IMG/VR virus record: IMGVR_UViG_3300010376_000032
Location: 1-64,000 of that record
Reading direction: 5' to 3' (one strand)
DNA: 64,000 nt
Source: a virus
Lineage: Duplodnaviria; Caudoviricetes
Every line of letters begins with the position of its first letter. The first letter of the stretch is position 1. The notes under the pieces were generated by a model. The model worked only from the letters and a program-made list of their open reading frames with translations, was not told where the DNA came from and searched no databases. The position numbers and the translations under genes were made by a program. This document shows, in pieces, positions 31,221 to 54,344 of this stretch.

Positions 31221-32027
31221 CTATTGCTGCCTGCGACTTTGGGACGCCGCTCGTAGCAAGTTGTCACGTTCCGCAGCGTACTCTTCGGGTGTCATCGCCT
31301 TGAGTTCATCGGCTGTATACGTCCGTGTAGTCCCGCTGGTTTCCATAGGACCGACTGGGGGCGCGGTGACTCCTACCGTGGGACGGGCGGCGTTGACCTG
31401 ACGTAAACCGTTGACAACACCACTTTTGATGTCGTTGGTTTTTTGTACAAGAAGAGAAATCGACTGGTCGATCTCTTCAGTGGTATTTCCAGACACCAGA
31501 TCACGGAGTTCAGGCATGATATTTTCTGCCTCAGTGGCCATCCGCTGGCTCATGTAGGTCTGCAGCGAGGCGTGGCGGCGCTCCTGCTCCAACATGGCGA
31601 AGGCCCGTTCCCGTTCCTGGCGCTCCTCCTGGAGGCGGGTTTCCCACTCCTGATCCTTGCGCTGGATCAGGTCGCGGAGTTCCATCTCCTCCTCTTCCTT
31701 CTTCTTCGCCGCCCGCTGGGCATCACGCTGCGTCTTGGCTTCCGCCGCCTGGCGGTCCTCTTCGGCCTTCCTGTATGCGGCCAGTTCGTCCTGAAGCTGG
31801 TCGGCCCGCTGCTGCTCTGCGGCGTAACGGGCACGCTCCTCCTGACGAATGCGCTCGACATCTTCGGCAGTGAACGACGAGGGCAGTTCGCTGTTTCGCT
31901 GGTTGCGATTGCCGCTCGTGGCCGGGGGCGGTTCCGCGGGCGGGGTGACCGGGACGGTGATGCTGTTCGGGTCAGGCGGTTCGGGGTCGCCTTGCTGCTG
32001 CGTCGGGTCTGGTTCGACGGTGGTCAT
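31221..32027 (-). CDS. Prohead scaffolding protein
   Basis: Lies between portal and MCP; long charged coiled coil; P-rich N-terminus. Confidence 0.82.
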   Translation of the reverse strand: MTTVEPDPTQQQGDPEPPDPNSITVPVTPPAEPPPATSGNRNQRNSELPSSFTAEDVERIRQEERARYAAEQQRADQLQDELAAYRKAEEDRQAAEAKTQRDAQRAAKKKEEEEMELRDLIQRKDQEWETRLQEERQERERAFAMLEQERRHASLQTYMSQRMATEAENIMPELRDLVSGNTTEEIDQSISLLVQKTNDIKSGVVNGLRQVNAARPTVGVTAPPVGPMETSGTTRTYTADELKAMTPEEYAAERDNLLRAASQSRRQQ

Positions 32028-32036
32028 CTCCTGGCG

Positions 32037-33815
32037 TTAGCTCCTTATGCTGTCATCTTCTTCGGGGGTACGGCGTTGTGGAATGGTGGTGCCGTGAGAG
32101 AGAGTGACGATCCGCTGGAACATCTTCTTCACGTCCTCGCTGTCTTTCAGGTCAATCCCTGGCAGCATCCCGATCTTGGCCTGGGGAGCGCTGTTTACAT
32201 TTGGGCCACCCGCCGACTTCACGCCTCCCCCGTTGGACGATCCGCCGTTGGAGTTGCCGTCGCCTCCACCGTTCTGTGGGGGTGGGGGCATTGGTTGTGG
32301 GCCTTCGGGTGCGACCATGCCGGTGAGATTGGCCGTGAGGCTGGCGACCTGTGCCTTGAGGAGATCGAGGGCAGCCTGCTGCTCCGCGTCATCTACCAGT
32401 TCCTTGAAGAGTTCCTGCAGCTTCTCGTCGGGGAACTCCTCACCAAGCTCTATGAGAGCGCCCCGCTTGGACTCCAGGCCCAACTGCATCTTGACCATTA
32501 GCTCGTTGAGCTTGACCAACTGGTCGACCGGCAACGGTGGCTGGAACTGAACGGTGTTCTCATAGGTCACCGGGTCCATCGGGTCCAACATCGGTAGCTG
32601 GTCATCCCTGAGTGGGGGATCCCACTCAGGGTTGTAGACCAATGTCTCCGGCTCTTTCATAAAGAGCGTCTTCAGTGCCAGCCGATTGACCTCTGCGAAG
32701 CCCTCACCATACTGGGTGGCCTTCAAGTGGAAGCGATTCATGAGAGGCTGATACTGAATCGCCAGGGCCACACCGGAGGTGTTGGAGATGGCCTGCTCCT
32801 CGCCCAGGGCGGTCACCGGGACACCGGTCATCTCGTGCATGGCCCGCTTGAGCACATCCAGCAGCTTGATGGCCTCCTCGATGCCCCGAGGGTCGAAGAG
32901 CAGGTTCTCTACCCGAGCTTCCTTGTTCGGGATACTCCAAGTCTGATGCGTGCCCTTCTCCAGGTTAGAGGCGCGGGCGCCGATCACCACCGTCACCGGG
33001 GCGGCGTGATAGCTGACGATGTCGCAGATATCCGTCGCAGTTTCGTTATACTGCCGGTTGAGCGGTGCGATGTCCTGTATGTCGGGCATCCCCCAGGGCG
33101 ATGAAGCGATTGGCATATTGCTGATGTGGACAACGGGGATCTCGCCCAGAGGATTTTCCCGCTGGTCGATGAGTTCGTCGTTGACGTACTCCTCGATCTG
33201 GTTCTCGGTGAGCAACTCGGTGTAGGTGAAGACCTGCCGGGTGCCCTCCTGGGTGGTCCCCCAGAACCGATACTTCAGCTTGAACCGGATCAGTCGCTTG
33301 CGATCATGGGGATGCCATTCCGGAAAGCAGAACGCCGAGTTCAGCGGCAAGATCCGAACGCGACCGGGATGTGGCATCCCGGCGGGATCCTGCCACGGCT
33401 CCTCGTAGGCCACCTTTACGAAGCAGTCCCCGGTGACAGATCCCATGGACCCCATCTCCCACAGGAGCGAGTCCTTCTTGTTGTCTGTCTCCCAGATGCG
33501 CTGCAGCCGGGTGGGCACGATGGCACCCGTGGCATCCGGTGAGCGAAATCCCACGCCCTTGCCGAACACGAAGTTGGTGGTGAAGTCGCTCAGCGCCCTG
33601 GTGTAGTTGAAGGTGAGTTGCGGCTCACCCAGATCGGGCCGTTGTGCCCAGTGGTAGCCCAGGTAGAAGGCCCAGTTCATGGCGTAGCGGTTGAGCCTGG
33701 GGCCGTGGACCTCAAACTCCTCGTCGGCAAGCTCCACCAGCCCGAGCGGGCTGATCTGGATGGTCAGATCAGACGATGCCGCTCGATAGCTGGGGGACTG
33801 GAACTGGATGGACAC
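32037..33815 (-). CDS. Portal protein (SPP1 gp6-like)
   Basis: RYA.NWAFYLG.HW, G.VTGD.FVKV, P.N.AFCFPE.HPH, NPLG.IPVVH.N, YHAAPVT, SNTSGVAL.IQY.P. Confidence 0.9.
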   Translation of the reverse strand: MSIQFQSPSYRAASSDLTIQISPLGLVELADEEFEVHGPRLNRYAMNWAFYLGYHWAQRPDLGEPQLTFNYTRALSDFTTNFVFGKGVGFRSPDATGAIVPTRLQRIWETDNKKDSLLWEMGSMGSVTGDCFVKVAYEEPWQDPAGMPHPGRVRILPLNSAFCFPEWHPHDRKRLIRFKLKYRFWGTTQEGTRQVFTYTELLTENQIEEYVNDELIDQRENPLGEIPVVHISNMPIASSPWGMPDIQDIAPLNRQYNETATDICDIVSYHAAPVTVVIGARASNLEKGTHQTWSIPNKEARVENLLFDPRGIEEAIKLLDVLKRAMHEMTGVPVTALGEEQAISNTSGVALAIQYQPLMNRFHLKATQYGEGFAEVNRLALKTLFMKEPETLVYNPEWDPPLRDDQLPMLDPMDPVTYENTVQFQPPLPVDQLVKLNELMVKMQLGLESKRGALIELGEEFPDEKLQELFKELVDDAEQQAALDLLKAQVASLTANLTGMVAPEGPQPMPPPPQNGGGDGNSNGGSSNGGGVKSAGGPNVNSAPQAKIGMLPGIDLKDSEDVKKMFQRIVTLSHGTTIPQRRTPEEDDSIRS

Positions 33816-34036: not shown

Positions 34037-34212
34037 CGCGATTTCCTCATCTGCTGTTGGTAGTCCCATTGGGTGCGAGGCAGCTTGCGACGGCTCTGCT
34101 GCTTGACGACGCGGTTCACCTGCTGTTGGTGCTTCTGTGCCTGGGTGGTCGCGGCCAACGAAGCGTGCCGGGGGCGGAATCGCTCCAGGTGCGACGAGTC
34201 ACCAACGGCCAC
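34033..34212 (-). CDS. Small basic Gln/Arg-rich protein (59 aa, missing from the ORF track)
   Basis: Translated by hand: MAVGDSSHLERFRPRHASLAATTQAQKHQQQVNRVVKQQSRRKLPRTQWDYQQQMRKSR*; coupled on both sides. Confidence 0.58.
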   Translation of the reverse strand: MAVGDSSHLERFRPRHASLAATTQAQKHQQQVNRVVKQQSRRKLPRTQWDYQQQMRKSR

Positions 34213-34415
34213 TACTCATCGCCTGCCCGATGAGTGGGCTGGCCCCGGTAGACCTGCTCGACCATGCCGCCCAGGGCACTTGGCCCCGCGGCGCGACCGT
34301 ACATACGCTTGGGGTCCGAGGACATGGGATTGGCATGTGGATCACGCCGGTCGTTCCACAGCGTGTCGATGTCCATGTACTCGACGGGGACGCCTTTGAC
34401 CTTGGGCTGGTCCAT
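34212..34415 (-). CDS. Hypothetical protein
   Basis: 67 aa, TGATG coupling. Confidence 0.58.
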   Translation of the reverse strand: MDQPKVKGVPVEYMDIDTLWNDRRDPHANPMSSDPKRMYGRAAGPSALGGMVEQVYRGQPTHRAGDE

Positions 34416-35959
34416 CAGAACAACCGTCCTTGCATCTGTCCGAACTGCACTGGGTGCTTAATGGGGGGGTGCGCCTGCTCCTCGCTGGGGAAGTTCGCGG
34501 CCAGCTTGGTCTTCCCGGCAGCCATGGCACTCTCGTGGCGGCGGATGGTTTCCTCACCCCACTGGGTGGCCTGGGCCTGCTCGACGTGGGTCAGCCCACG
34601 CTTTTTCATGGCCTGGCGGGCGGCGTAGTCGGCCAGGGCGTGGAAGCTGGCCCGAGGCACATTGGACTGCCGGGAGGCGTACTCGATCACATGCTCGCGC
34701 CCTGACTTCTGGCGCATGGGCTTGCCGCTCTTCAAGAGCCTGGGGTTGCCCTGCTCGTCAGTCAAGATGGGCTTCTCGGTACCGAGGTGAGGGAGCATGC
34801 CGCCACCACCGGAGTGGATGTCAGAGGTGAAGAACTGGGGCGTGCCACCCAGCCAGGCGTTGTGGTAGGCGCCGGTCTTGGGACCAAACCCGCCTTTGCC
34901 TGAAGTGCCAGCGTCAGTCTCCGCAATGGACTTTCCCTCGTGGATGACCTGGTGGGCGCGCTCCAGGGCCTTGGCTGTGTTGGCCGGATACCCACTGCGA
35001 GCGTGGCCGGTCAGAGGATGCTCAGGATCGTCCTTGCTCCACTCGTCAGGGTTCCTGCCGGAGGCGATGTGGCGGATGATGTGATCGGCAAGCTCCGCGT
35101 TGGGATAGCTCACTTTGCCGGTCTTCTTCGACTCGTACTTGAACTTCATGTTGGGCGAGGTGTCAGCGTTGACCGCGGCCACCAGGCCCAGCGACGTGCC
35201 GTGCTGCTTGGCCGACTGCTGCAACCGCTGCGCCGCCTCACCGTGGGTGTAGAAGGTCTGGGCGTAGGGATCCTCAGCCCCGTGGGTACGCGCCCGTAAA
35301 TAACCCTGATCTAACTGAGCGCCGAATGATTTTTCCATCTCCTTCGGACCCACCCCGCCCAGTCGCTTGACCTCCTCCAGCGTCCTCTTCTGTTCCTCTG
35401 GGGTGTGCTCCTCCCAGCGCTTGGGTACCGGCCGCGCCTGAGGATCCTCCATACCGGGAAGCTGGGGCTGATCCATGGTGGATCGGCCTGCGCGATGATG
35501 TTCTCCGAACCCGTAGTGTTCGTACGCCTGGGCGTGTGTGAGCTTCAGTCGCTTCTGCTCCTGGAGGCCAAGCTCTGGACGCTCCCGCGCCAGCTTGTTG
35601 TGCTGCTCCGTGGCGTAGTCCACCACGTCCTTCATGCGCTCCTGACCTGCCTTGCTGCGCTCCCAGTTCTTCCGCTTCTTCACCGACGCCGCCGTCTCGG
35701 CCACGTCTGCCTTCTGCTGGGCAGCCTGCTTGGCCTCACGTTCTTGAGCAGCGGCGTGGGCCTTGGTGCCAGGCCGGGGAGCCTTGGATCTCTGGGCGCC
35801 GGTCTGTGACGGCTTGACGGGAGCGGGCTGGTTGGGGGGCGCGCTCTCTGTCGGCACCACAGAGAACTGCCGTCCCGCGCTGCGACGACGCCTTACTGTC
35901 TCTGGCGGTGCCGCCCCCGCATCCCACTCCTCGCTCATCGGGACCGCGGCCATCGTCAA
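34415..35959 (-). CDS. Unknown protein: disordered basic N-terminus, HhH-glycosylase-like core, C-terminal QGRLF
   Basis: AAV.A.TSP..K...N..LA; GFGPKTGAY; TSDIH; QAQATQW pattern recalls phage HhH-GPD-like proteins (from memory, not searched). Confidence 0.55.
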   Translation of the reverse strand: MTMAAVPMSEEWDAGAAPPETVRRRRSAGRQFSVVPTESAPPNQPAPVKPSQTGAQRSKAPRPGTKAHAAAQEREAKQAAQQKADVAETAASVKKRKNWERSKAGQERMKDVVDYATEQHNKLARERPELGLQEQKRLKLTHAQAYEHYGFGEHHRAGRSTMDQPQLPGMEDPQARPVPKRWEEHTPEEQKRTLEEVKRLGGVGPKEMEKSFGAQLDQGYLRARTHGAEDPYAQTFYTHGEAAQRLQQSAKQHGTSLGLVAAVNADTSPNMKFKYESKKTGKVSYPNAELADHIIRHIASGRNPDEWSKDDPEHPLTGHARSGYPANTAKALERAHQVIHEGKSIAETDAGTSGKGGFGPKTGAYHNAWLGGTPQFFTSDIHSGGGGMLPHLGTEKPILTDEQGNPRLLKSGKPMRQKSGREHVIEYASRQSNVPRASFHALADYAARQAMKKRGLTHVEQAQATQWGEETIRRHESAMAAGKTKLAANFPSEEQAHPPIKHPVQFGQMQGRLF

Positions 35960-36357
35960 TCAGTGACGACTTCGGGTGCCCTCCGCTTCTGGATGGCTCC
36001 GTTGCGGAACACTTCCTCATACCGGACCTCTGCTTGGTCCGTAAATGAGCCGTGGGCGAACTCGCCCAGCATGGTGGGAGCGTCGATCCAGGCCGCAGAG
36101 CCGACGTGGGCGCGCTCAGCCATCGTCTCCTCAGGCATCTTGAACTGGGTGTTGGGATCGACATGGTTGATCCGACCCGGGGCCGACACCATAAATTCCG
36201 TCATACCCCGCTGAAAATCGGTCGGAATATCTGTGTCGGTGCTTAACCCTTCCTCAAAACGCAGTGGACCGCGACCGCCAGGGGCGTTCGGTCCCATGGT
36301 GCGGTCGTAGCTGTACTGGCCCCTCTCGGGGAACTGTGGATCAGGGCTAATAGACAT
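35956..36357 (-). CDS. Conserved-looking phage protein, probably virion-associated
   Basis: Start reset to ATG 36357 (GGAGG RBS); RGPLRFEEG..TDTDIP.DF..G; AHVGSAAWI.AP..L.EF..G. Confidence 0.7.
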   Translation of the reverse strand: MSISPDPQFPERGQYSYDRTMGPNAPGGRGPLRFEEGLSTDTDIPTDFQRGMTEFMVSAPGRINHVDPNTQFKMPEETMAERAHVGSAAWIDAPTMLGEFAHGSFTDQAEVRYEEVFRNGAIQKRRAPEVVTD

Positions 36358-36388
36358 GGGCATTCCTCCCAATGACGGGTTGTATTGA

Positions 36389-36446
36389 AGGCTAGTGACG
36401 GCCCGATGACGCACCGCGACCACCCAGTACCCCATACCGTCGAGAC
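36389..36446. promoter_or_regulatory. Back-to-back promoters: TAGCCT (minus, 36389-36394) and TACCGT (plus, 36435-36440, 6 nt before ATG 36447)
   Basis: Gap between divergent genes with TAnnnT on both strands. Confidence 0.55.
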
Positions 36447-37196
36447 ATGGCGAAACAGCTTCGTCTGGCCCTGGGACGGCTGTCGGCTCGTCAGTTCGCC
36501 CCGGTGGGGTCAGCGGCGGTACACGCCCGTGCGTTGACCAAGAAGGTCACCGGCAACAGGTACCAGGCGCCATCGGCCCAGCTACAGGTGGACCCCATGG
36601 TGGGCCACCACCTCATGTCGGAGTACCGGTCACGTCAAAACGAGCCGCCCAGCGACCGGCTGCAGCGCAGCTACGCCGCCATGCGGGACGACGTGAACGC
36701 CCAGTACGAGCACATGACCAGGCCCCGGGAAGAGGGTGGCATGGGTATCCACCACGAGGTGACCGCCGAGGATCCCTACGCCACACCAGGGCAGATGGCC
36801 CATGATGTACGGAAGAACAGGACTATAAAAACCCTGTCAACTGAAACCACGGGCGGGCATTCATTTTTTACCAATGAGGAGAACGACCGGTTCCGAGCCG
36901 TTCATGATGTGTTCGGTCACGCCGCTGTGGGCCGGGGCTTCTCTCGTCATGGCGAGGAAGCGGCCTGGCGCAGCCACGTCCAGATGTTCTCTCCCGAAGC
37001 CCGGGAGGCCATGACCTCAGAGACTCGGGGTCAGAACAGCTACCTCAACTACCACCCGGGCGGGGCGAACTTCCCCGAGCAGGGCATGGTGGGCATGTCC
37101 AAGCTGGCCCAGTCACCTGAGGCCGGGGCCATCCTGCGCCGAGCCACGCCAAAGACGGCACGGCCCCAGGGCGAACAGCTACGGTTGCCACTGTGA
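36447..37196 (+). CDS. Unknown protein with an HDxxGH (zincin-like) motif and terminal QLRLxL motifs
   Basis: FRAVHDVFGH...F...GEEAAW.SH..MFS..AR.AM.SETRGQNSYLN; begins MAKQLRLAL and ends EQLRLPL*. Confidence 0.68.
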   Translation: MAKQLRLALGRLSARQFAPVGSAAVHARALTKKVTGNRYQAPSAQLQVDPMVGHHLMSEYRSRQNEPPSDRLQRSYAAMRDDVNAQYEHMTRPREEGGMGIHHEVTAEDPYATPGQMAHDVRKNRTIKTLSTETTGGHSFFTNEENDRFRAVHDVFGHAAVGRGFSRHGEEAAWRSHVQMFSPEAREAMTSETRGQNSYLNYHPGGANFPEQGMVGMSKLAQSPEAGAILRRATPKTARPQGEQLRLPL

Positions 37197-37399
37197 GCGC
37201 GTCGGACGACTGGGCGCACAACACCTCGATGCAGCGAGCGACTGGGAGTGACGTGGCCTTACCGATCACTCCCGCCACCGCCCAGATGGGTACACAGTCC
37301 GCCCTGTCCCAACTGCAGTCCCAGGCTGAGCCAGCGCTCGCCCAGGGTGCCTCTACGCTGAACGATGTTGCGGCTGGCGTCTTGGGCGCGCTGACCTAG
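37193..37399 (+). CDS. Hypothetical protein
   Basis: GTGA overlap; 68 aa, A/Q/S-rich; overlaps the terminase 3' end convergently. Confidence 0.45.
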   Translation: MSASDDWAHNTSMQRATGSDVALPITPATAQMGTQSALSQLQSQAEPALAQGASTLNDVAAGVLGALT

Positions 37400-38996
37400 C
37401 TCGCCTCGCCCCCGCCGCCCATGGCGTCGTCTGGATCTCCACCTGGGGCACCATCAGCACCTGGCTCATGACGGTGGCGCAGGCCAGGGAGTCGACGTAG
37501 TCGTCATGGGCACCGGCCTCGTTCGGAGCTTCTACGAGGAGATGCGCTCCCTTGTAGGTCTTCTCCACGTCGATCATCTGCTGGCGGAAGCGCCGCCACA
37601 CCCGGGTCTTCTTGGCCCTGGGGTGGGCGGGCCAGGACAGTAGGCCCCGTTGGAGTAGCTGCTGGAGGTGCTTCCACCGGGCCGACTGATCCGCGATCTG
37701 TGACGACAGCGGTTCGACCTGGATCTTGGGCAGGAGCCGCTTGAGCCGGTCCGCGGCTACGTCCCCGATGCCCTGGGCGTCCACGCCCATGGCTACCACT
37801 GAATAGTTAGAAACAAAGTCCACGATGCGGAAGAATTGCTCCTCCCAGTTTTCACCATGCATCTCCAACCAGTTGAGAATCCGGTGATCGTAGAGGCCAA
37901 GTTCGTCTGGCCGATCAAAATCTACCCAGCAAATGGTGACGACGGTGGAGTCCATTTTTCTGGCGAAGTCCACGCCCGCCACCAGTGGAGAGCGCCAATA
38001 CGCAGGGACGATAGGCATGGTGGGGTCGCCAAGCTCGTCAAACCTCGACTCAATTATCAGTTGCCCACGTTCCAATAACCATTCCAGCCGATAGTTGAGC
38101 CGGAACTCGTCGCTGTCCTCCCCAATACGCTGGGCCTCGCCCCGAATGTAGGCGGCGTAGTTGCGATTAAACTTGGCGCAGTAATGCCAGTCGAATCGGA
38201 AGTGATTTTTCTTACCGCCCCGACGCAGTTCCATGCGCCGGTTGTGCTGGATGGTCTTGTAGAAGACGCCCTTGACGATGTCCGGTGTGCCAGTCATGAC
38301 CATGGTGGCGAGATAGAACGCACCCATGGGGGAGATGCTCTTGTCCAGCACGTACTGGTCCACCGACTGGCTCTCGTCCACGAAGATGACGTGGTAGCTC
38401 TTGGACTCGATCTTGGCCCGGGGGTTGGCCGTCTGCATGGCGCAGAAGCTCTGGCACTTCTTGAGCTTTACCTTCCGCGAACCTGGGCGCACCTGGTCAT
38501 CGATCTCAGGGTCGGCCAGCATCTCGTCGGCCCGCTCCGAGGTCAACCGGTCTACTACCCGCCCAAACAACGTCTCGACCTGCTGCTCGACCGGGGCGAA
38601 GCAGCCGATCATGACCCCCTTGGCGAACTTTTGGAGTGGCTCAAACTCGGGGAAGATCTCAGCCAGGCGAGGTAAGAGAATCATAAGACTGGCCGCAACA
38701 TTCGCAACGACTTCGGTCTTGCCGCTCTGACGAGACAATTCGCCCGTAATGGTCGCGCCGTCGCCGGAGATCACCGACTCGATGATGCGGCGCCCGATGG
38801 CCTCCTGGTAGGGGAACATCTCCACGCCAGAGAACATGACGGTGAAGGCCCACACCTTGTCCACCAACCTGTGGACAAAGTCCTGATCGGCAGGGTTGAG
38901 CGGCTCCGGCGCGTAGCGGGCCAGGTCATCAGATAGACCTTCCTCGTCTAATTCCTCCTGTACCTCGTCCAGGCCGGGATCCTCGACGTATGTCAC
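37353..38996 (-). CDS. terL: Terminase large subunit
   Basis: Walker A SRQSGKTE, Walker B VIFVDESQ, MTGTP coupling motif, nuclease VAGVDFA..DSTV and HDDYVDS. Confidence 0.93.
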   Translation of the reverse strand: MTYVEDPGLDEVQEELDEEGLSDDLARYAPEPLNPADQDFVHRLVDKVWAFTVMFSGVEMFPYQEAIGRRIIESVISGDGATITGELSRQSGKTEVVANVAASLMILLPRLAEIFPEFEPLQKFAKGVMIGCFAPVEQQVETLFGRVVDRLTSERADEMLADPEIDDQVRPGSRKVKLKKCQSFCAMQTANPRAKIESKSYHVIFVDESQSVDQYVLDKSISPMGAFYLATMVMTGTPDIVKGVFYKTIQHNRRMELRRGGKKNHFRFDWHYCAKFNRNYAAYIRGEAQRIGEDSDEFRLNYRLEWLLERGQLIIESRFDELGDPTMPIVPAYWRSPLVAGVDFARKMDSTVVTICWVDFDRPDELGLYDHRILNWLEMHGENWEEQFFRIVDFVSNYSVVAMGVDAQGIGDVAADRLKRLLPKIQVEPLSSQIADQSARWKHLQQLLQRGLLSWPAHPRAKKTRVWRRFRQQMIDVEKTYKGAHLLVEAPNEAGAHDDYVDSLACATVMSQVLMVPQVEIQTTPWAAGARRARSARPRRQPQHRSA

Positions 38997-40287: not shown

Positions 40288-41001
40288 ATGGAGTACGACC
40301 GGCTGGAGGATCGGATCTACCGGGAGGTAGGGATCCGGCATCCCCGCGAAGTGCTGGGGTACCTCATCCCGTACTACATCGAGAAGGCATACGAGGGCGA
40401 ACCGATCCGGTTTCGGATCCTGGTCAAGTGTGGTTGCCAAAACTTTTCCCGAGAGGATTGTTCCGCCCCACCCGCCGCAGGCGGGCGAGGGACTAGTCTA
40501 GCGGCCAAGCCGCTGGGTACTAGGCCCGAGCCGAGCGGAGCTTCGGAGGCTGAAAGCCGGAGAGGCGAAGCGAGTCAGGCGAATAAAACGATAACCTCGT
40601 TCTTCACTACGCCGCCCAGCCGGAAAAAATGGCCACCGGACGTGGAGTTGGCCAGAGACTATTTTCCTCAGCTACTGCTCCAGCACGGACATACCAGGTT
40701 CACCTCCTGGACGAACGTGCCAGCCTTTTCCAGGAACCTGCGCCAGTGGCATGACCGGGACGGCATCGATTATCCGATGATCCGGTTGATGATGGAGGAG
40801 TTCGCCCATCACCCCGAGTGGTGTCGTCGGTCGAAGAACATGCCTTGGAAGGTCTTCCTGGCTCGCCGCACACAGTTGACCGAGATACTGCTGGTCCAGC
40901 AGCGGAAGGATCCGGCCAACCGCCGGTTCAGCAACGGTGACAGCGGTGAGGGCAGCTACTGGAATCGCCGTCCCACCTCCGTCGCATCATTGGCGCTATG
41001 A
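40288..41001 (+). CDS. Putative replication initiator/replisome organiser
   Basis: Start reset to ATG 40288; upstream of a DnaC-like loader and DnaB; flexible middle and helical C-terminal domain. Confidence 0.5.
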   Translation: MEYDRLEDRIYREVGIRHPREVLGYLIPYYIEKAYEGEPIRFRILVKCGCQNFSREDCSAPPAAGGRGTSLAAKPLGTRPEPSGASEAESRRGEASQANKTITSFFTTPPSRKKWPPDVELARDYFPQLLLQHGHTRFTSWTNVPAFSRNLRQWHDRDGIDYPMIRLMMEEFAHHPEWCRRSKNMPWKVFLARRTQLTEILLVQQRKDPANRRFSNGDSGEGSYWNRRPTSVASLAL

Positions 41002-41513
41002 CTGCCGTCCGTATCCCATTGTGGTACCGGGGCCGCGCCACCCCCGACTTCCTGGACTCGGGCCGGTGCGCCTGCATCGGCAAGCGAGATCTGTACTTCG
41101 ATGAGTCGATCGAGGCCCTGGCTGCCTGCCAGGCCATCTGCGTCACCTGCCCGGTGTTCCAAGCCTGCACCCGCTGGACCATGCAGCAGCACCGCCTGGG
41201 CAAGCTGGAGTTCGGCATCTTCGCCGGACTGACCCCGCACGTCCGAGACAAGATCGTGGAGGGCAAGGAGCCGTACTACGACTGGCGGCGCGAGTGGAAC
41301 CGACGCAACTACGTCCCCCGCATCGCCGCCGATGTGTCGCGGCGGGCCTACAAGGCGGGCCGGGGCAAGCGCATGCAGGCTAAGGCCGAGATGCCGCTCT
41401 GCCCGTTCTGTGGCGTTCGGAATCGGGTGTGCCGCTACGGGCGCGACCGGGACCGCCAGCGCTACCGCTGCTACACCTGTCGGCTCTCCTTCCTGGGAGA
41501 GGAGATGCTGTGA
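40998..41513 (+). CDS. whiB: WhiB-family regulator fused to a C-terminal Zn ribbon
   Basis: C-x21-C-x2-C-x5-C with GIFAG turn; C-terminal CPFC...YG.....QRYRCYTC. Confidence 0.8.
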   Translation: MTAVRIPLWYRGRATPDFLDSGRCACIGKRDLYFDESIEALAACQAICVTCPVFQACTRWTMQQHRLGKLEFGIFAGLTPHVRDKIVEGKEPYYDWRREWNRRNYVPRIAADVSRRAYKAGRGKRMQAKAEMPLCPFCGVRNRVCRYGRDRDRQRYRCYTCRLSFLGEEML

Positions 41514-53561: not shown

Positions 53562-54163
53562 GTGTCCGTCAGCGGCTCCTGTTGTCGAAGCAGCAGGAGT
53601 CAGAGGGGATGAAGCGCTTTGGCGGTGTCCGGAACCCGCGTTCTGGTGCGCGTTGGGACCGCCGTAACGACGGTCGCACCGACACAGAACTCATCGAGTT
53701 CAAGCGCACAGATAACGCTCGCGGCATCCGCCTCCTCGCTGACGACCTCGACGCTCTCTACCAACACGCCGTGGCAGAGTGCCGCCTCCCTGTTCTCGGC
53801 TTTGAGCTATGTGGAAAACACTGGGTCGTACTCCCTGAACCCGACTATCACGAACTGGCTGCTCTACGACGAGCACCAGGTACTGGCGGCGATCTACGAG
53901 CGGATGAACATCGGGGAATGGAGCCATCGGGCCAAGTGTCACGGCCTGCCAGGAAACCTGTTCTACGCCGAGTACCAGCACAACAACAGCCAGGTCCAAG
54001 AGGCCCGAAGCGTGTGCCTGGGAACCCATCCGGACCACCCCGGTGTGTGCCCGGTGATCCAAGAGTGTCTCGACTACGCGATCAACAACGGGGAGAGGTA
54101 CGGCGTCTGGGGCGGGTGTTCCGAAAGGGAGCGCCGCCGGATCAAGCGCCAGCGGCACCGTGA
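53558..54163 (+). CDS. PD-(D/E)XK Holliday-junction-resolvase-like nuclease
   Basis: S..QE....K.FGG...P.SGA.W..R.D......LIE.KRT; the last ~100 codons overlap whiB out of frame. Confidence 0.72.
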   Translation: MSVRQRLLLSKQQESEGMKRFGGVRNPRSGARWDRRNDGRTDTELIEFKRTDNARGIRLLADDLDALYQHAVAECRLPVLGFELCGKHWVVLPEPDYHELAALRRAPGTGGDLRADEHRGMEPSGQVSRPARKPVLRRVPAQQQPGPRGPKRVPGNPSGPPRCVPGDPRVSRLRDQQRGEVRRLGRVFRKGAPPDQAPAAP

Positions 54164-54344
54164 GGAAGCTCTCGCGAACGGGAACGTCATCCCGCTCGAC
54201 ACACCGCCCGGTGATCGACAAGAACCTGCGGGCGTTGTTAGAAACGACCAAGCGGGACACCCGACTCCTTGGCGACGTTCAAAGGCTCTTATTGCAGCCT
54301 GGCGAGCACAACGGGCCGAGGAACGATGCGCTGCATCCTTCTGA
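53904..54344 (+). CDS. whiB: WhiB-family regulator (second copy)
   Basis: W..RAKC...LFY; C-x25-C-x10-C-x5-C; RYGVWGG.SERERRR; start set to ATG 53904. Confidence 0.88.
   Translation: MNIGEWSHRAKCHGLPGNLFYAEYQHNNSQVQEARSVCLGTHPDHPGVCPVIQECLDYAINNGERYGVWGGCSERERRRIKRQRHREEALANGNVIPLDTPPGDRQEPAGVVRNDQAGHPTPWRRSKALIAAWRAQRAEERCAASF

Follow-up and report, generated by a model that had tools for sequence, protein, structure and literature searches.

Two neighbouring phage genes with beta-clamp-binding-like terminal peptides: a candidate module for docking on the host DnaN

Ligands of the bacterial beta clamp DnaN carry a short clamp-binding motif (CBM): Pol II has it in its C-terminal tail (...GQLGLF), as does Pol IV (QLVLGL), Hda has it at the N-terminus, and it may also lie in a loop; the CBM of DinB1 from M. 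smegmatis is QESLF. The consensus ligand is QL[S/D]LF (PMC9690074, PMC11139829), and clamp-tethered repair enzymes and regulators, with NucS, Nei2 and XthA among the partners, are described (PMC11139829, PMC9690074, bioRxiv 10.1101/2022.03.06.483125). MuC of phage Mu was shown experimentally to bind the host beta clamp via CBMs at its N- and C-termini (PMC12867686), while Gp168 of Staphylococcus phage Twort (cited in PMC11139829) is a clamp inhibitor that binds the DNA channel and not the peptide pocket. Peptides of the CBM type are found at the termini of two proteins encoded by neighbouring open reading frames (ORFs), ORF514 and ORF249, in the IMG/VR virus record IMGVR_UViG_3300010376_000032, of which positions 1 to 64,000 (the window) were analysed. 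It is considered reasonably probable, from the sequences, that the tails dock both proteins on DNA-loaded DnaN of the host, at its peptide pocket.

The locus resembles MuC and the Mor late transcription activators in having family-conserved, near-consensus motifs at both termini and in the proposed borrowing of the host clamp. However, MuC, from a phage of proteobacteria, is a small transcription factor that binds DNA, whereas here two enzyme-like domains of actinophages are concerned, the binding is predicted and no homology is implied. The cellular ligands, that is Pol II and Pol IV, Hda (QLSLPL) and DinB1, carry the same motif on a disordered terminus beside a DNA-processing domain, but are host housekeeping proteins and not products of phage genes. 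The Caulobacter toxin SocB also targets host DnaN. Gp168 and SocB are both mobile-element proteins directed against DnaN; for ORF514 and ORF249 such targeting is predicted.

The initial annotation assigned clamp-binding-like motifs to the ends of both proteins, and the translations and coordinates agree for ORF514 and ORF249:

34415-35959, minus strand: ORF514, HhH-GPD/DUF7178-like, with a disordered N-terminus of about 60 residues and a clamp-binding-like C-terminal tail (from the ORF, its homologues, the AlphaFold2 model and fold matches)
34418-34432, minus strand: QGRLF-COOH, the C-terminal pentamer of ORF514 (residues 510-514; the protein ends in ...VQFGQMQGRLF)
36447-37196, plus strand: ORF249, a stand-alone polyvalent-protein-associated domain with hexamers at both termini (from the ORF, its homologues and the AlphaFold2 model)
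36456-36473, plus strand: QLRLAL, the N-terminal hexamer of ORF249 (residues 4-9; the protein starts MAKQLRLAL)
37176-37193, plus strand: QLRLPL-COOH, the C-terminal hexamer of ORF249 (residues 244-249; the protein ends in ...GEQLRLPL)

ORF514 and ORF249 are the only two of the 353 six-frame ORFs of at least 60 residues in the window that have QxxLF or QLxLxL at a terminus, and in the complete 118-kb relative G001 the C-terminal motif is present only in the two orthologous genes among 714 ORFs. In 80 viral loci Qxx[LM]F C-termini were found in 6 of 4269 ORFs, four of them ORF249 homologues and two partner-like neighbours, and in the bacterial loci in none of 7527. Within the two families the peptides are the rule. 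The Qxx[LM]F end is present in 44 of 61 ORF514 homologues, in the form Q-[GQE]-[RSK]-[LM]-F. Out of 120 ORF249 homologues, 72 have a C-terminal motif (58 pentamers, 14 hexamers) and 87 have QxxLF or QLxLxL among their first 30 residues (59 pentamers, 28 hexamers), the latter starting at residue 4 in the median. The motif conservation at homologue termini that the initial annotation named as a check is present. Where the sequence ends in F, the two families have Q at position -5 in 49/54 and 38/48 cases and L at -2 in 50/54 and 37/48. No such constancy is seen at positions -8 to -6. The motif is kept across 31-88% identity while the adjoining linker varies.

A match arising by chance or from low complexity, without function, has some initial appeal, as roughly one ORF in 8000 is expected to end in Qxx[LM]F and isolated cases arise across many windows. 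It does not account for three terminal motifs in two linked genes, kept in most of more than 180 homologues next to variable linkers, nor for control ORF sets without such motifs. Its probability is regarded as negligible, and the conservation of the aligned ends effectively refutes it.

By their sequence the three peptides are of the CBM type: QGRLF, QLRLAL and QLRLPL fit the pentamer and hexamer rules of beta-clamp ligands, in line with the initial assignment. The common pattern is Q-[G/L]-[R/S/K]-L-F-COOH, which interchanges at homologous positions with QLxLx[L/F] (QLSLPL, QLKLPL, QLGLEF). Distant ORF514 relatives end in QGTLF, QPTLF or QGRLF, and other partner-like proteins in [K/R/Q]-x-L-G-[L/I]-[E/P]-F. 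The families also contain the C-termini QESLF (in several homologues), EQLSLF and EQLRLF and the N-termini QLSLPL, QLKLPL and QLRLFD. Docking on the clamp is favoured because the interchange of pentamer and hexamer and the use of either terminus follow the rules of clamp motifs, and the pair probably rides on the host clamp since most relatives keep the peptides. Also counted in favour are the restriction of the motif to the two genes, the one tag carried by two unrelated folds in one module, the HhH-GPD-like cargo, the lack of a phage clamp of the families searched and the precedent of MuC.

Other features of these ends were noted. The possibility that the two QLRL stretches of ORF249 are DNA direct repeats flanking a mobile cassette was dropped because their codons differ (cagcttcgtctggcc versus cagctacggttgcca). 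Many ORF514 members have a QF element 6-10 residues ahead of the C-terminal pentamer, which in ORF514 itself reads VQFGQM. Both families have an alternative C-terminus, in which ...LF or ...PF is followed by [ND/TD]-D-R-R-R (QLSLFKDRRSK, PSLFNDRRR, VPFNDRRRAT); such endings occur in P0208, P0235, P0239, P0287 and P0326 of the ORF514 family and in P0067 and P0082 of the ORF249 family, and may represent a longer or a distinct docking signal. In G001 (L166) a third protein of 239 residues (79059-79778, plus strand), which has no homologue in the window, carries an N-terminal DQLKMF.

No clamp gene was found in the record or in two complete relatives with direct terminal repeats (G000, G001, G002) with the models TIGR00663, three Pfam beta-clamp domains, PCNA_N and the T4 gp45 family. 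The family A polymerase PolA is present in the window, so that both halves of the earlier statement, a polymerase of this type and no clamp gene, hold. As the phage shows no clamp of the searched families, any clamp used would be that of the host.

ORF514 and ORF249 form a real two-part module, as had been proposed, since at least 13 phage loci have the two domains next to each other and at least seven have them as a fusion. ORF249-like and ORF514/DUF7178-like genes are adjacent or no more than 3.5 kb apart in L002, L006, L007/8, L012, L025/27, L030, L031, L032, L035, L036 and L041 and in Gordonia phage Skog and Mycobacterium phage Tonenili; the fusions are in L040, L046, L049 (E3), L052, L057, L075 and L126. 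The order conserved in the lineage of the window is terminase, ORF159, ORF514-like gene, ORF249-like gene, portal and capsid, and the closest relative, L002, has a canonical DUF7178-like gene of 288 residues in the ORF514 slot. For ORF249 copies that occupy the same slot but lack the motif, no partner was detectable. One NCBI-derived homologue comes from an Ilumatobacteraceae metagenome-assembled genome.

In the cluster C mycobacteriophages and in Skog both adjacent genes start with another shared peptide, (I/V)TAREQFEMLxPW, so that having a terminal tag in common seems to characterise this gene pair generally. The two loci are:

L079 (Mycobacterium phage Tonenili), 7993-10903: gene pair with the shared N-terminal tag
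L074 (Gordonia phage Skog), 7498-10636: gene pair with the shared N-terminal tag

The QFEML within this peptide resembles a clamp pentamer.

ORF514 has 61 homologues in a word-indexed search (31-88% identity) and 155 representative clusters in an exhaustive one; the start chosen by the gene caller is an ATG two codons in (MAAVPM...). It has no match in a tblastn search against phages, none in PHROGs and no Pfam family at E ≤ 0.1. DUF3882, the sole match when the Pfam search was carried out to E 10, was rejected as a chance one. The AlphaFold2 model has a predicted local distance difference test (pLDDT) score of 87 and a long helical N-terminal extension. To judge by homologues and models, ORF514 and ORF249 are both genuine genes. 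Among 48,161 solved chains compared with VIA-align, the top 22 fold matches are all HhH-GPD enzymes or Qng1, with Z of 7.8-4.5, 170-238 residues aligned and root-mean-square deviations of 3.9-5.4, while the matches beyond them have unrelated folds and Z ≤ 4.3. The HhH-GPD enzymes are OGG, EndoIII, MutY, AGOG, MagIII, Mag1, AlkA and ROS1, and Foldseek ranks the same families first, although weakly (E ≥ 0.45). The earlier description of ORF514 as glycosylase-like thus stands at the level of the modelled fold, which appears HhH-GPD-like with a moderate match (Z < 8).

The putative active site of ORF514 is found in the following stretch:

34808-34885, minus strand: hairpin GFGPK361TG, then D380-I-H382 (from invariant columns)

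Lys361, Asp380 and His382 are invariant in the 61 sequences (K359/D378/H380 in P0121 numbering), as are a Trp, a Glu and an Arg. Asp380 lies 19 residues after Lys361, in the stretch SDIHSGGGG. The G-x-G-P-K-T hairpin of ORF514 with the Asp 19 residues on is reminiscent of the bifunctional HhH-GPD glycosylase/lyases, and the spacing is like that of K120/D138 in EndoIII and K249/D268 in OGG1, residues which by inspection may be equivalent. Unlike the HhH-GPD superfamily and Qng1/DUF2419, to which it has no sequence-profile match, ORF514 has the extra invariant residues (H382, W, E, R). A base-excision or nucleoside-hydrolysing activity via the invariant Lys361 and Asp380 is probable. A further short motif, RRxxAGRQF, is kept by ORF514 and its closer relatives in the disordered N-terminal part (about 35860-35890, minus strand; residues ~25-33).

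ORF514 appears, on the evidence of intermediate sequences, to be a divergent branch of Pfam DUF7178 (PF23802). Two proteins of its family, P0175 with 28.0 bits and P0281 with 28.6 bits, score above the DUF7178 cut-off of 27 bits, and the ORF514-family profile matches the DUF7178 regions of two large proteins, P0332 and P0330; the comparison of the ORF514 family with a small DUF7178 alignment (6 sequences) by hhalign was negative. P0332 (1433 residues) is a phage portal protein with DUF7178 fused at its C-terminus and P0330 (2123 residues) is a polyvalent protein with 2H phosphoesterase, GNAT and DUF7178 domains, which indicates a virion-associated delivery route for the DUF7178 domain. A literature search on DUF7178 returned nothing.

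ORF249 has 319 homologues, and its core (residues ~15-230) corresponds to phrog_3170. The N-terminus is supported by homologues that start alike (MAKQLRLDLG, MAKQLQLPIG, MAEQLRLFDP). The AlphaFold2 model is all-helical with a pLDDT of 94. No solved relative was found: the matches of the VIA-wide comparison are scattered with a best Z of 3.0, Foldseek gave no PDB match at E ≤ 0.09, and there was no Pfam match, no PDB match by profile and no named ESM Atlas cluster. The core contains the following element:

36903-36920, plus strand: HDVFGH, with invariant H153-D154 and G157-H158 (residues 153-158; from invariant columns)

These four residues, together with the likewise invariant E170, E171 and H177, may form a metal or catalytic site, to judge from the alignment. 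The initial annotation as metalloprotease-like is not supported because the motif is HDxxGH and not the HExxH of zincins, and because the zincin-like chains (ArdC, YbeY, PprI, CapP and minigluzincins) do not stand out, matching ORF249 only at Z of 2.2-2.5 amid unrelated folds. The parallel to SPRTN-type proteases, the sabotage of host replication and the clearing of defence complexes, also raised there, are speculative.

The ORF249 core is also found inside phage proteins of 438-2993 residues (E of 1e-56 to 1e-65) that carry NUDIX or DUF7178 as well. One of the proteins containing it is gp205 of Rhodococcus phage E3, annotated as a 'structural protein', and BFVD lists entries with the ORF249 fold under the names MuF, 'Large polyvalent protein associated domain' and ART-PolyVal. 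Many genomes of Micromonosporaceae have stand-alone homologues of the core of about 230 residues (L082-L154: Micromonospora, Dactylosporangium, Actinoplanes and related genomes); they are without the terminal motifs, starting with ...SPxFPPVxYV and ending with ...RxFSDPRxVRV.

Polyvalent proteins are known from phages and conjugative elements (Iyer et al. 2017, PMC5512222). Both cores are found, in many cases side by side, in multidomain phage proteins of 500-3000 residues, together with NUDIX, 2H-phosphoesterase, GNAT, MuF and portal modules. The pair in the window differs in that the cores are two separate genes, each of which has gained clamp-motif tails that the fused forms do not have. 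The suggestion that the system is undescribed holds in part. Clamp recruitment by CBMs is already known, as is a phage protein with two terminal CBMs, which was shown for MuC (PMC12867686). What appears to be new is the cargo, a pair of uncharacterised phage effector domains of which one has a glycosylase-like fold, and the link to polyvalent proteins. An HhH-GPD-type or DUF7178 protein with a CBM, or a phage protein pair sharing one, was not described in the literature searched.

We infer that the proteins bind DnaN, what each enzyme does chemically and how the host might be affected along the following lines. ORF514 and ORF249 would be the halves of a conserved phage effector module that elsewhere is fused in large virion-associated polyvalent proteins. 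ORF514 would carry one C-terminal pentamer CBM and ORF249 a hexamer CBM at each end, the target of all three being host DnaN. Such tethering would place the HhH-GPD-like enzyme and its partner on DNA at or behind primer termini. With an N-terminal CBM as in Hda and a second one on a basic tail of about 25 residues, ORF249 might bind at the two pockets of a single clamp dimer, and host clamp pockets filled in this manner could be lost to host Pol III and repair enzymes. Such competition could arise since the phage has a PolA, a DnaB and a primase of its own for replication.

A bolder version holds that the pair is a host-takeover device, in which ORF249 plugs both pockets of the clamp dimer and evicts Pol III and repair enzymes, and the clamp carries the ORF514 glycosylase/lyase along host or unprotected DNA to damage it, while the phage uses the clamp-independent PolA. 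This version is thought unlikely. If true, it would be the first example from a phage of an offensive enzyme module tethered to the clamp, and DUF7178 and the ORF249 core, as domains of polyvalent proteins, would be tied to the clamp of replication.

Several points weigh against docking on the clamp. Position 2 of the pentamer is often Gly and not Leu, and the motif is missing in the fused versions, in the Micromonosporaceae copies and in several copies of the same lineage. The C-terminal tail of ORF514 (pLDDT of 50-54) and residues 1-20 and 233-249 of ORF249 have no DSSP elements, as befits a clamp-binding motif, but the pLDDT of the ORF249 termini is 70-84, as against the < 50 typical of free tails. 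The glycosylase assignment of ORF514 rests on Z < 8, its profile matches no PDB chain and no Pfam HhH-GPD family, and the DUF7178 model misses ORF514 itself. The domains also belong to virion-associated proteins (the portal-DUF7178 fusion P0332, E3 gp205 and the MuF/polyvalent proteins), and both genes lie in the head-morphogenesis block, from terminase to portal. The head genes of the window are:

31221-32027: scaffold-like head protein
32037-33815, minus strand: SPP1-type portal (from Pfam and PHROGs family scans)
37353-38996, minus strand: large terminase (Terminase_6C, phrog_2)

On the minus strand the block runs from the large terminase through ORF159, ORF514 and small ORFs to the portal, and ORF249 stands on the plus strand between the terminase and ORF159. 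An ORF of 67 residues (34212-34415, minus strand) begins at the stop codon of ORF514. The two overlap in TGATG, and ORF514 may thus be coupled in translation to the genes on the way to the portal.

In view of the head-block site and the virion-associated relatives, the tails could be packaging signals. They would then be capsid- or portal-targeting signals that load the stand-alone effectors into procapsids in place of covalent fusion, and their likeness to clamp motifs would be a coincidence. The position between terminase and portal in the lineage of the window, the coupling of ORF514 to the downstream head operon, the fusion of DUF7178 to the portal in P0332 and the presence of the ORF249 core in MuF/polyvalent proteins and in E3 gp205 are all in line with this, as is the restriction of the tags to stand-alone forms. 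However, the motif is on no other head protein, be it the scaffold-like protein, the portal or the capsid, and ORF249 here is encoded on the other strand and has an upstream region to itself. P0038, a homologue with both motifs, sits between tail-fibre-like genes and an endolysin, and same-lineage capsids have motif-less ORF249 copies in the same slot. A site on the capsid would also have no reason for the alternation of pentamer and hexamer or for placement at the N- or the C-terminus. Such targeting is viewed as quite unlikely to be the explanation, and it could coexist with clamp binding after ejection.

It is also conceivable, though improbable, that the tails dock on a hub other than DnaN, which might be a different protein of the host, a replication protein of the phage or each other, in an ORF514-ORF249 complex, or that they fold back in autoinhibition. 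The tag is common to both partners, which act together as a module, and the ORF249 termini, with the pLDDT given above for the monomer model, may pack on the core. Related pairs also have alternative shared tags, namely TAREQFEMLxPW and the F-[ND]-DRRR tails. Against a different hub, the motif fits a well-defined class of known ligands, and motif-bearing ORF249 copies in L009, L010 and L014 have no detectable partner. We know of no alternative hub with such motif specificity.

Docking on the host clamp, if it applies, would make the conserved peptide the first functional lead on two widespread and unstudied families, DUF7178 and the phrog_3170/polyvalent core. Its confirmation would widen the use of the host clamp by phages from transcription factors (MuC) and channel-blocking inhibitors (Gp168) to enzyme pairs. 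Pocket ligands from actinophages would be relevant to DnaN as a validated antibiotic target in mycobacteria, and terminal peptides common to neighbouring phage genes may be a general route to the host hubs that phages exploit.

The record has 77 kb and is about 66% complete; the window, its first 64 kb, has a G+C content of about 62%. A megablast search with the region against phage records gave no match. From 39 kb the plus strand encodes an XRE regulator, two WhiB proteins, an IstB-like loader, DnaB, a primase, an SNF2 helicase, PolA, RecA, an exonuclease and a RuvC-like resolvase; no DNA-modification genes that could explain a glycosylase were seen among the ORFs of this replication module. 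WhiB proteins point to an actinobacterial host, and the host is read as such because of the two genes in the window:

40998-41513, plus strand: first WhiB-family gene, fused to an IS1595-type Zn ribbon (Pfam E 1.9e-07 and 2.3e-04)
53619-54344, plus strand: second WhiB-family gene

A scan of bacterial genomes for prophage copies by which the host could be placed turned up only the motif-less Micromonosporaceae subfamily.

Two further features lie between ORF514 and ORF249:

35956-36435, minus strand: ORF159, a conserved small protein (from homology and synteny)
36358-36446, no strand assigned: divergent intergenic region from the probable start of ORF159 to ORF249 (from reading the sequence)

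The sequence suggests that ORF159 probably starts at M27 (ATG at about 36357), behind a GGGAGG ribosome-binding site, and not at the longest-ORF start at 36435, which leaves a divergent spacer of 89 bp before ORF249. A promoter and terminator consensus scan around ORF249, sigma-70 included, gave no match. The hexamer TACCGT, of the TANNNT -10 type, ends 7 nt upstream of the ORF249 ATG, a placement that would be compatible with a leaderless transcript. ORF159 has no Pfam or PHROGs match. Its gene directly follows the large terminase throughout the phage lineage of the window, and its homologues also adjoin the terminase in Streptomyces BRock-like phages (48% identity).

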